From an uncultured Gammaproteobacteria bacterium (GTDB lineage: Bacteria; Patescibacteriota; Patescibacteriia; UBA10025; JAHIVO01): a stretch of 64,000 nt of DNA. The notes below the pieces were generated by a model that had not been told where the DNA came from, did not search any database, and saw nothing but the letters and a program-made list of their open reading frames with translations. Location of the stretch: assembly GCA_964628855.1 (NCBI GenBank), contig CAZVMV010000002.1, positions 11,442 to 75,441 on the forward strand. Direction: 5' to 3'. The position numbers and the translations under genes were made by a program. Positions 31,531 to 33,474 of this stretch are shown in pieces (within the stretch, counting starts at the first letter, position 1; the number at the start of each line of letters is the position of its first letter).

Positions 31531-33474
31531 TTATATGTTATTGCGCTGGATGGAGTCGCAAGGCATGGAATTCGTGCAGGAAACATCGTTGGCACTGAAT
31601 GTGCCGCCGATCACCGTGCAGAAACGAGCGGTAGCTGACAGATAGCAGATTTTCTGGCCTCCTGCCACCGCCGTACAGCAGCCCAACGTACAGATGCGCT
31701 GACCGCCGACTTCGACCGTGCTACATTGGGTCTGGGCGCGGTATTGTCCGACTATATTATCGCATTTTGATCGGGTATAGCTATTGAAACAGTTGTACTT
31801 GCCGGTGAGTTCATTACAGCATCCACTGCAGTCCGCCACGTTCGAACAGGAGCCGGCAGTTGGGGTGCCGCCCTGCGATGTGCATTGCCCTTGAGGGTAG
31901 TTATCATGACAACTCAGATCCCCGTTTGGGTTATTACAACATCCAGTAGTGCATTGGGGCGGAAGCGGTGCGCCGTCTGGAATAAAGCCATCTGGCATGT
32001 TACAGGTAATATCGGCTACCGGTGAAGCACAGGCTCCCGTAGCTGAGTCCCAACATGTGCCAGTGGCGCATAGTCCGCCAGCCATGGTAGGACAGGTGCC
32101 GCCAGGTCCGCCGAGAATGACTTGGTTATTTGGAGGGGAGCAGGAGCCTCGGGATACGCTACTGCTACAAGTGAGGGCATTTTGGTACAAACAACAGACC
32201 GGGGCGCAACTGACATTTGCAGCGCAGGTGTTGACCGCATCATATATCATGTCCGGGCCTGCACATGCACCATCGATGTTACCTGCCTGACAGGTGTTCT
32301 GGCAGCAGCCGTTGGTGCATTGGCCGATCATGGAACACGAGGTAAGTGCACTATGGTTATTACTTCCCAATACAGTAGTGCAGTATCCTTGGGTGGTGTT
32401 GTTGTAACAGTTGGTATTGCCGGGCTGGACGCAGCATCCGGTACGGCATAAAGTATTTTGGAGCGCAGAACAGGACTCCGTATTGTATAGGTTGGCGCTG
32501 CAGTCAGTTTTACCATCAGTACAGCCATTTTTACCGATACAACAACCACCCTTACACTGCTCGACGTCAGAACAGTCGACACCCTGACTAAAGGTTGATC
32601 CCTGGGGACATTCGGCAATAGTAGTAGTAGTGCAGGAGCTTTCATTACTGCAACAACCTGTTACCGTTTCGTCGGCTGAGCCGGTGCCCTGGATTTTGGC
32701 AGGATCACAGTCCTGACCAAGGTAGGTGCAGGCAGTTTTTTTATGCACTGTAGTGGGGTAATCGATGCATCCTTTTTTCGGATCCGGCCAGTAGCATATT
32801 TTATCAGGATTTTCCCCCTCGGGAACGTAGGGGACACAACAACCTTTGGTGAAATTTTCACAGACCGCCTTGTATTCCGAGCAAAAATTGTTTTCTCCCA
32901 TAAATTGAACGCCGTCAAACAGGGCGCTCATGCCGGAGCATTCCGCCTGCGTCGTTTCCGTGCAGCCGGTATTAGGGACTACGCAGCAGCCCGAATTCGC
33001 CGGATGTCCTGTGGCAGTGCCCCCGCCCCACCATTCTTTTGAAAATGGCGTTCCCGGAAAGACATTCACCGAACCAGTGAGCGCAAAAACGACAAAGCTG
33101 GCATAGGACCAGGCCAGGAAGAGGACGATAATCACGCCCACGAGGACTGAGACGGCCATTTTTTTGCCCTGTTGGATTTTTTCCGGATTGCCACCGGCCG
33201 TGATCAGGTTGAAGCCGGCCCACATCATCATCAGCATGGCCAGGAAGGGCAGTATTTTTAAGGCGACTTGCGCCAAATTGACGAACAATTGAACAAAAGA
33301 ATTTAAATCGCATGGCTTATCGCCCGGCAATTGTGCGCCAAGGCATTCATCGGGAATTATTTGTAATCCGCTGCCAACGTCCGCGGCCAGGGATAATTGG
33401 GGAATGGCCAACCCGGCGATAATACCTAGGCACAGGATGGCGATGGTGTAGATGTATTTATTCTTTATGGCCAT
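31531..33474 (-). CDS. Pilin-like anchor (paralog 3) fused to a ~480-aa cysteine-rich tandem-repeat ectodomain
   Basis: 647 aa. The N-terminus has a signal peptide plus MMMWAGFNLITAGGNPEKIQQGKKMAVSVLVGVIIV. From ~aa 163 there are ten CC doublets, each followed by four spaced Cys. I count about 65 Cys in total. Confidence 0.6.
   Translation of the reverse strand: MAIKNKYIYTIAILCLGIIAGLAIPQLSLAADVGSGLQIIPDECLGAQLPGDKPCDLNSFVQLFVNLAQVALKILPFLAMLMMMWAGFNLITAGGNPEKIQQGKKMAVSVLVGVIIVLFLAWSYASFVVFALTGSVNVFPGTPFSKEWWGGGTATGHPANSGCCVVPNTGCTETTQAECSGMSALFDGVQFMGENNFCSEYKAVCENFTKGCCVPYVPEGENPDKICYWPDPKKGCIDYPTTVHKKTACTYLGQDCDPAKIQGTGSADETVTGCCSNESSCTTTTIAECPQGSTFSQGVDCSDVEQCKGGCCIGKNGCTDGKTDCSANLYNTESCSALQNTLCRTGCCVQPGNTNCYNNTTQGYCTTVLGSNNHSALTSCSMIGQCTNGCCQNTCQAGNIDGACAGPDMIYDAVNTCAANVSCAPVCCLYQNALTCSSSVSRGSCSPPNNQVILGGPGGTCPTMAGGLCATGTCWDSATGACASPVADITCNMPDGFIPDGAPLPPQCTTGCCNNPNGDLSCHDNYPQGQCTSQGGTPTAGSCSNVADCSGCCNELTGKYNCFNSYTRSKCDNIVGQYRAQTQCSTVEVGGQRICTLGCCTAVAGGQKICYLSATARFCTVIGGTFSANDVSCTNSMPCDSIQRNNI

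Follow-up and report, generated by a model that had tools for sequence, protein, structure and literature searches.

A VirB2-type pilin hairpin fused to a variable ectodomain of six-cysteine modules: a candidate modular pilin of Patescibacteria

We analysed a 64,000-nucleotide stretch of contig CAZVMV010000002.1 (positions 11,442 to 75,441; hereafter the window), which encodes on its minus strand a 647-amino-acid (aa) protein, here termed the big pilin, that joins a signal peptide and a VirB2-type pilin hairpin to a C-terminal ectodomain of ten Cys-rich modules. Its open reading frame (ORF) begins with ATG and lies exactly where a first-pass annotation, made by reading the window alone, had placed it (31531-33474). 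Below we describe the architecture of this protein, its repeat, its conservation and synteny, the expression signals of its locus, and the ways in which the ectodomain varies and is exchanged for other domains among homologues. The reading that best accommodates these data, and to which we give about an even chance of being right, is that of a modular minor VirB2-type pilin presenting an extracellular, disulfide-stapled stalk.

The identity of the anchor as a VirB2-type pilin hairpin is supported by several observations. Residues 60-123 of the big pilin match the T4SS_pilin family (PF18895) at 30.4 bits, against a gathering score of 26.6, and the two small genes that follow, encoding paralogues of 136 and 118 aa, pass the same model (scores in Table 1). 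The mature pilin domains of this trio align at 21% and 37% identity and have the motif GGF...AGGN..K..KK in common, in agreement with the first-pass proposal that the three proteins share a two-helix motif. A hydropathy profile reveals three hydrophobic segments in the big pilin, at aa 6-33 (signal-peptide-like, ending in SLA before AD), about 60-93 and 102-136. No further segment follows aa 136, as had also been stated. In our AlphaFold2 (AF2) model the hairpin helices span aa 57-92 and 102-133, and the basic loop between them, AGGNPEKIQQGKK, contains three lysines. Of the two profile families suggested for the anchor, T4SS_pilin was thus recovered above threshold, whereas Pfam TrbC/VirB2 (PF04956) gave no match to the big pilin even at E ≤ 10. 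The N_methyl/class III signal peptide motif (PF07963/IPR012902) has no match in the big pilin either. Against NF045849, a pilin-like family of Mycoplasma integrative and conjugative elements (ICEs), the trio scores 15, 23 and 32 bits, with the big pilin at 15, all under the 40-bit cut-off.

F-pilin and VirB2 are reported to adopt an N-out, loop-in, C-out topology. The big pilin combines a cleaved signal peptide with a basic loop and should therefore, by the positive-inside rule, have the same orientation. Topology rules and a disulfide-rich composition together would place the C-terminal ectodomain outside the membrane, and the C44/C55 pair, along with the 64 Cys downstream of the second helix, would fit an oxidising extracytoplasmic location. 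The region after the second helix comprises about 510 aa, and the module-built outside domain about 490 residues.

The big pilin contains 67 Cys, close to the earlier estimate of about 65, and ten CC doublets (at aa 163, 212, 274, 311, 347, 390, 427, 512, 552 and 599), nine in a GCC and one in a VCC context, exactly as first reported. In nine of the ten modules the doublet is followed by exactly four more Cys, at gaps of roughly 5-9, 6-8, 9-18 and 5-10 residues. The proposed pattern of four single Cys after each doublet holds in these nine and fails in module 7 (aa 426-510), which contains 10 Cys owing to an inserted CC-less segment. We compared these counts with 20,000 shuffles of the ectodomain sequence. 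The number of doublets alone is ordinary (10 versus 8.3 expected at 13% Cys, P = 0.30); no shuffle reached the nine observed GCC motifs (0.95 expected) or the nine observed cases of exactly-four-Cys spacing between doublets (0.57 expected). The ectodomain is acidic and rich in G, T, S and N. Its six N-x-S/T sequons, remarked upon in the first-pass annotation, are at chance level (6.8 expected, P = 0.71) and carry no signal, and glycosylation as a deduction from sequons was accordingly rejected.

A formal repeat analysis bore out the periodicity of the ectodomain. A 40-position hidden Markov model (HMM) was trained on 94 modules taken from distant homologues, with neither the query nor its four nearest relatives contributing. 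This model recovers the 10 query modules at independent E-values (iE) < 0.01 with unchanged boundaries, as compared with a mean of 0.10 and a maximum of 2 modules in 300 composition-preserving shuffles. No tandem repeat exists at the DNA level; the modules therefore appear to be old and diverged, and repeat collapse is of no concern. On the same ground, recent duplication is unlikely. Searches of aa 160-647 against Pfam-A and NCBIfam yielded zero matches at E ≤ 10, and searches of the Protein Data Bank (PDB) yielded no solved chain significantly similar to the ectodomain by sequence, profile or fold. Resemblances to alpha-conotoxins ("GCCS...C"), granulin and GCC2_GCC3 were considered and set aside as motif-level likeness, with profile and fold support absent.

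The full-length AF2 model, built on a 19-sequence family alignment, has a mean predicted local distance difference test (pLDDT) score of 68 and a predicted template modelling (pTM) score of 0.35, with the modules in aa 160-430 at pLDDT 75-89. A di-module model based on 50 aligned module pairs reaches a pLDDT of 79. Each module is modelled as a beta-hairpin, formed by the GCC strand and the C3 strand, followed by a short helix, a strand and a second short helix.

A search of 5.8 billion clustered proteins identified 20 relatives of the big pilin, four of them full-length at 49-56% identity and the others ranging to about 35%. Several are annotated merely as "pilin" and come from Patescibacteria, and one is from Candidatus Kerfeldbacteria. 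The pilin part alone (aa 31-160) gave zero matches among the clustered proteins, possibly because of the word prefilter. In the family alignment, nearly all Cys columns, the glycines of the GCC motifs and the juxtamembrane WWGGG are invariant or almost so. Scanning one genome per GTDB species, we located 19 loci, all in Patescibacteria or Kerfeldbacteria metagenome-assembled genomes (MAGs) bar four with another label. Loci L012, L018, L020 and L026 show Patescibacteria-type synteny and lie in MAGs titled "uncultured Gammaproteobacteria bacterium", a title that probably stems from a mislabelled bin or a default label and not from a true taxonomic difference.

This distribution bears on the possibility that the ORF is an artefact, either a chimera of a small pilin and an unrelated Cys-rich gene or a chance ORF. 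Beyond the concern that any repetitive ORF raises, nothing speaks for this explanation, and we regard its probability as negligible. The same junction is found in at least 19 species-level genomes and in many metagenome contigs of different projects, full-length homologues fall into about 40 clusters, and the recurrence of the architecture in so many independent assemblies, at 36-56% identity, rules against an assembly chimera. Moreover, neither the Cys columns nor the linker varies, the DNA has no tandem repeat that might mislead an assembler, and GC content is even across the region. The first-pass annotation had named three grounds for doubt, and none of them materialised: the repeat region has no match in a characterised family, its Cys spacing is periodic, and the fusion recurs in independent assemblies.

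The anchor and the ectodomain evolve very differently. Of 181 modules compared across 32 family proteins, 155 contain exactly six Cys, at median gaps of 0/7/8/12/5. Relative to the query, the anchor is 56-85% identical across the family versus 14-49% for the non-Cys positions of the ectodomain. Among the closest relatives the big pilin is the least conserved gene of its locus: in L003 it is 49% identical, as compared with 95% for the 118-aa pilin, 91% for the NTP_transferase and 77% for the solute-binding protein (SBP). Such fast divergence would be typical of an exposed interaction surface.

In every locus the first pilin at the syntenic position carries an extension, the content of which varies. 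The query and its closest relatives have 10 modules and the next tier 7-9; L018 has 4, and L016, L017 and L019-L021 have 2. In L022 a single CC doublet lies inside a divergent Cys-rich extension. In five orthologues (L023, L024, L025, L026 and P0020) a PG_binding_1 domain (PF01471) scores above the Pfam threshold after the pilin hairpin. Three of these (L023, L025 and L026) have no CC doublet, with L023 and L025 adding a beta-rich tail, and the other two, L024 and P0020, combine PG_binding_1 with Cys modules. The big pilin of this window has no PG_binding_1 match. Modules 1-2 occur in every Cys-rich pilin of the family, the 2-module orthologues included, and form the conserved core, with modules 3-10 as an expansion. 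Overall, the family presents a picture consistent with a conserved carrier bearing a fast-evolving effector, tunable in length and swappable in identity, and it seems that VirB2-type hairpins serve generally to carry different ectodomains. To judge from the PG_binding_1 orthologues, the effector may act at a cell wall, either the cell's own or that of a host.

The module also occurs outside the pilins. With HMMER, an ectodomain-only profile matched 91 of 1.84 billion representative proteins at E ≤ 1e-3, 32 of them at ≤ 1e-10. Family and matched proteins together number 100, of which 40 have the pilin hairpin and 60 lack it, the latter including giants of up to 3158 aa and up to 40 CC doublets. 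Giant non-pilin proteins built from the module are indexed as P0026, P0032-P0034, P0036, P0039-P0044 and P0049-P0101. P0026 has a Laminin_G_3 domain and is encoded on a 5.3-Mb contig, P0050, from Thermodesulfobacteriota, has an IPTL-CTERM sorting signal, two giant proteins have dockerin-like tails, and P0032 comes from the amoebozoan Mastigamoeba balamuthi. The framework of the non-pilin modules has median gaps of 0/5-11/8/12-13/4-7, and comparison of pilin with non-pilin modules in hhalign gives a probability of 96% (E = 2e-9). An HMM made from the external proteins alone re-detects the query modules, six of which score higher than any of 300 shuffles. In the non-pilin proteins examined, the module is not covered by any Pfam or NCBIfam model. 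The six-Cys GCC module is thus a candidate new domain family, uncurated but not unique to the big pilin. The first-pass annotation did not recognise it as any named Cys-rich family; it is unmatched in Pfam, NCBIfam and the PDB, and it recurs in this wider, uncurated family. The occurrence of the module in secreted or surface giants supports its assignment as an extracellular module.

The presence of related modules in secreted proteins is also what one would expect if the pilin part served as an export or processing leader, with the ectodomain cut at FPGTPF..WWGGG and freed as a soluble, disulfide-rich protein such as a toxin, an inhibitor or a binding factor. C-terminal proteolysis occurs in TrbC-type pilins, and WWGGG is invariant though it belongs to neither the pilin domain nor the modules. 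This motif is, however, equally explicable as an interfacial aromatic belt. Moreover, the locus has no conserved protease gene, and the swap to PG_binding_1 suggests a domain that is retained at the wall. By analogy with the processing of TrbC/VirB2 propilins release is conceivable, and we consider it improbable.

The big pilin sits in a conserved gene neighbourhood. The order is (PGA_cap), NTP_transferase, SBP_bac_1 homologue, big pilin, ~130-aa pilin, ~117-aa pilin and DUF2079, and from NTP_transferase through DUF2079 it is kept in all 19 species loci and in four further contigs. Both small paralogues adjoin the big pilin in all 19, confirming the co-occurrence that the first-pass annotation had raised as a question. 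The intergenic gaps from NTP_transferase through the 136-aa pilin measure 7, 9 and 47 nt. An SBP homologue lies directly 5' of the big pilin in every locus, with no ABC permease or ATPase nearby; its orthologues match SBP_bac_1/SBP_bac_8, and the copy in the window has no Pfam match. The opposite strand encodes three polytopic proteins without a firm Pfam assignment and a phosphoglucose isomerase (PGI). At 24089-28547 (+) lie three consecutive large proteins of 524, 418 and 539 aa, none with a Pfam match above threshold, the middle one weakly GT87-like. Their synteny with DUF2079 is kept across homologous loci, and they are probably GT-C-type envelope glycosyltransferases.

Expression signals single out the 118-aa pilin. 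A promoter at the equivalent position 5' of this gene matches the consensus at 12/12 positions in 12 of the 19 loci and at 10-11/12 in the other seven, and a terminator with a perfect stem follows the gene in 13 of 19. Promoter and terminator bracket this last small pilin only. Within the locus, the gene for the 118-aa pilin also shows the strongest conservation, with 57-96% identity to its orthologues, and reaches 96% where the big pilin is at about 50%. Promoter, terminator and conservation together are what one would expect if an abundant major subunit worked alongside accessory subunits of low copy number, and we tentatively assign the roles within the trio in this way.

The same neighbourhood can be read differently. 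The big pilin could be a stand-alone envelope protein, in which the hairpin would serve as a two-helix anchor or oligomerisation module and the Cys chain as a wall-spanning spacer or scaffold, possibly glycosylated, that works together with the adjacent envelope-glycan genes and the orphan SBP. Tethering or organisation of the wall or S-layer, or the positioning of the SBP at a fixed distance from the membrane, would be examples of such a role. This explanation is possible, and we rate it well short of an even chance. The conserved neighbours (NTP_transferase, PGA_cap, PGI, DUF2079 and a weak GT87-like protein) include zero type IV secretion system (T4SS) genes, the SBP gene is always present and ends just upstream of the big pilin, PG_binding_1 in syntenic orthologues implies residence in or at the cell wall, and an acidic, G/T/S/N-rich chain would suit a spacer of this kind. 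Yet three tandem pilin paralogues, one of them with signals like those of a major pilin, fit a heteropolymer better, and the anchor is strongly conserved (56-85%) and keeps a loop motif typical of VirB2-like pilins. The sequons, at chance frequency, lend glycosylation no weight. Conserved gene order in a single narrow lineage with streamlined genomes is, moreover, weak evidence of a functional link.

Returning to the reading we favour, a modular minor pilin, we envisage the following mechanism. The Sec pathway would insert the big pilin into the membrane and signal peptidase would remove aa 1-30, leaving a hydrophobic hairpin whose short basic loop is cytoplasmic, with the N-terminal segment (C44-C55 pair) and the ~510-aa C-terminus outside. 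The hairpin would stay in the membrane or enter a VirB2-type lattice. The ten modules, of about 36-50 aa with three disulfides each, would make up a semi-rigid stalk that resists proteases and is long enough to span the wall, its length set by the number of modules. The big pilin would work with the two small paralogues, the 118-aa pilin being the abundant major subunit and the big pilin a low-copy one, in which the pilin module acts as carrier and the variable ectodomain as an effector contacting a host cell or peptidoglycan. We infer disulfide formation, incorporation into a filament, the position that the subunit would take there (tip, base or decoration) and adhesion. The function put forward in the first-pass annotation, a stalk or adhesin displayed on a pilin subunit, is plausible.

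Several observations weigh against this reading. To date, no Patescibacterium has been observed to bear a VirB2-type pilus; a 2025 review raises the possibility of one (PMC12857230). Our Pfam scan covered 50 ORFs of the window, including every ORF of at least 340 aa, and virB3, virB4, virB6 and virD4 are absent from this set. Gene lists within 10 kb at L001, L003, L004 and L006 contain none of these either. With no such genes near the pilins, an assembly machine, if there is one, must be encoded elsewhere, or else it is non-existent. The conserved neighbours are envelope-glycan genes (DUF2079, weak GT87-like, NTP_transferase, PGI and PGA_cap) and an orphan SBP, not secretion genes. A ~500-aa ectodomain is hard to fit on every subunit of a VirB2 lattice, and the big pilin could therefore be a rare, terminal or basal subunit at most. 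AF2 confidence is moderate for both the full-length (pLDDT 68) and the di-module model (79). Natural co-losses of Cys in homologues, taken as a guide to disulfide pairing, are inconsistent, comprising C2+C4 (P0008), C1+C5 (P0015/P0017) and C1+C6 (last module, P0006/7/10). Finally, we identified no disulfide oxidoreductase (DsbA, VKOR) among the scanned ORFs of the window.

A 142-aa membrane protein at 39400-39828 (-) is MauE/DoxX-like at 20.3 bits, sub-threshold against a cut-off of 27. MauE-family proteins have been implicated in forming the disulfides of a Cys-rich periplasmic protein, and by analogy this protein is a possible candidate for an oxidative-folding partner.

A more far-reaching proposal can be built on the locus as a whole, and we offer it as speculation that we think rather unlikely to hold in full. 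The unit of SBP, modular pilin, pilin and major pilin might constitute a surface appendage of Kerfeldbacteria-like Patescibacteria that is independent of T4SS ATPases, in which the carrier hairpins polymerise or cluster in the membrane and interchangeable ectodomains, either a disulfide-repeat stalk of adjustable length or a peptidoglycan-binding domain, reach the host through the wall, possibly coupled to capture of host solutes by the SBP.

Table 1. Features of the big pilin and its locus. Positions are those of the window, except in the last row, where they refer to the homologous loci named.
Feature	Position	Strand	Basis and remarks
Whole big pilin ORF	31531..33474	-	647 aa, ATG start; signal peptide, pilin hairpin and 10-module Cys-rich ectodomain
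Signal peptide, aa 1-30 (MAIKNKYIYTIAILCLGIIAGLAIPQLSLA, then AD)	33385..33474	-	Cleavage site inferred from A-x-A; hydropathy; AF2 helix 4-27
Mature N-terminal outside segment, aa 31-55	33310..33384	-	Conserved C44/C55 pair, C55 invariant; family alignment
T4SS_pilin (PF18895) two-helix hairpin, aa 56-135	33070..33309	-	Basic loop GGNPEKIQQGKK; Pfam, AF2, hydropathy, paralogue alignment
Juxtamembrane linker, aa 136-161	32992..33069	-	Invariant WWGGG (W148, G150, G151); family alignment
Core di-module, modules 1-2, aa 162-272	32659..32991	-	Cys count, alignment, module HMM
Modules 3-6, aa 273-425	32200..32658	-	Regular six-Cys units of 36-43 aa; module HMM; pLDDT ~76-89, best-modelled region
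Module 7 (VCC) with inserted CC-less four-Cys segment, aa 426-510	31945..32199	-	10 Cys; low AF2 confidence at aa 480-502
Modules 8-10, aa 511-647	31534..31944	-	Cys count, module HMMs
Second pilin paralogue, 136 aa	31073..31483	-	T4SS_pilin 29.6 bits; 47 nt 3' of big pilin
Third pilin paralogue, 118 aa	30606..30962	-	T4SS_pilin 49.9 bits; candidate major subunit
Sigma-70-like promoter TTGACA-17-TATAAT	31037..31065	-	Perfect consensus, 5' of third pilin; motif scan
Intrinsic-terminator-like hairpin	30549..30575	-	11-12 bp stem, 9 G-C pairs, T-run; directly 3' of third pilin
Orphan solute-binding-protein homologue, 461 aa	33484..34869	-	Membrane-anchored; ends 9 nt 5' of big pilin
NTP_transferase (sugar-1-phosphate nucleotidyltransferase)	34877..35761	-	First gene of likely transcription unit
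Promoter-like site 5' of NTP_transferase	35813->35785	-	11/12 with TG; motif scan
DUF2079 polytopic membrane protein	28548..30560	-	Always 3' of pilin trio
PG_binding_1 pilin orthologues (Kerfeldbacteria)	L023:2520-3635, L024:9803-10795, L025:11-1249, L026:4094-5029; P0020		Pfam

Elsewhere in the window, dnaA (4824-6182, +) and dnaN (6478-7581, +) are encoded, and the cumulative GC skew climbs from about 2 kb onward. The window therefore spans a probable replication origin, with the pilin trio about 25 kb away. T4SS genes of Patescibacteria have been reported to group near dnaA (PMC12102498). A cluster resembling type IV pilus (T4P) or type II secretion systems occupies 44534-50792 (+) and encodes a PilB-type ATPase (T2SSE), PilC (T2SSF), three prepilin-like proteins with N_methyl motifs (47479-49015), one of them weak and sub-threshold, and a 589-aa protein without a Pfam match. 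The window also encodes YidC and, at 13860-21567 (-), a glycogen/alpha-glucan-type cluster with two GT5 starch-synthase-like, two GH57 and one GH15 genes.

These findings matter in several respects. VirB2-like pilins of monoderm Patescibacteria have been recognised only recently and are essential in the one species tested, and the surface structure to which they might belong is in question (PMC12857230, PMC11665869). About 64 ectodomain Cys at fixed positions are hard to explain unless the C-terminus lies outside, which constrains the topology of the pilin family. A large and specific ectodomain also provides a handle for asking whether a filament exists and what it touches. If our reading is right, modular pilins, so far a concept of type IV pili, also occur in the unrelated VirB2 class. 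Moreover, the six-Cys extracellular repeat spans Patescibacteria to an amoebozoan, without a Pfam or NCBIfam model. In the literature searched we found no account of either a Cys-rich Patescibacteria pilin or a VirB2-type pilin bearing a large additional domain; a conserved modular VirB2-type pilin is thus so far undescribed there, with its homologues publicly annotated as "pilin".

The closest known systems are the VirB2/TrbC/TraA pilins, with which the big pilin shares a signal peptide, a two-helix hairpin, a short basic loop and a PF18895 match. Classical VirB2-type pilins are small, single-domain proteins of about 70-110 aa when mature, whereas the big pilin has 647 aa and an extension of about 510 aa. 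Unlike T4SS-encoded VirB2 pilins, moreover, the trio is not beside virB4, either in the window or in the flanks of the homologues, and is instead flanked by an orphan SBP and envelope-glycan genes. VirB2-like pilin arrays of Patescibacteria were reportedly described by Wang and colleagues in 2023. Such arrays comprise 2-11 genes with a mean identity of about 25% (Quinonero-Coronel et al. 2025, PMC12102498), and they are widespread in Patescibacteria and essential in the one species tested (PMC12102498, PMC12857230). The trio resembles them in being tandem, divergent (21-37% identity) and from the same phylum. With the Mycoplasma ICE pilin-like family NF045849 (Mbov_0395 family) the trio has in common a weak similarity in the hairpin and a monoderm lineage; it falls under the family's cut-off, its proteins are hence non-members, and NF045849 proteins lack a Cys-rich extension.

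For the ectodomain, granulin, WAP, hevein/CBM18, GCC2_GCC3 and alpha-conotoxin framework I offer a superficial likeness in their CC doublets, the conotoxins also in a "GCCS" start. The giant secreted proteins are nearer, with a framework of CC-x5-11-C-x8-C-x12-13-C-x4-7-C, usually G, A or S before the CC, and G-x-F/W/Y between C4 and C5. Unlike the big pilin, they have no pilin anchor, contain 13-40 modules and belong to other phyla (one to a eukaryote), and they are equally uncharacterised.

The grafting of an effector module onto a pilin is established in type IV pili, where a bulky effector is thought to fit at the filament tip only (PMC8179133). The big pilin resembles such modular pilins, for example PilB of Streptococcus sanguinis, a pilin fused to a vWA adhesin (PMC8179133), in its combination of a small carrier, a short linker and a bulky, variable effector, and multi-repeat T4P modular pilins are known in other Patescibacteria. 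The two classes differ in ancestry and assembly: T4P pilins carry a class III signal peptide and an N-methylated alpha-1 helix and depend on PilB/PilC for assembly, whereas the big pilin lacks an N_methyl motif and belongs to an unrelated superfamily. T4P modular pilins are minor subunits beside a major pilin, with modules swapped between lineages, and the resemblance of the big pilin to them is one of design logic.

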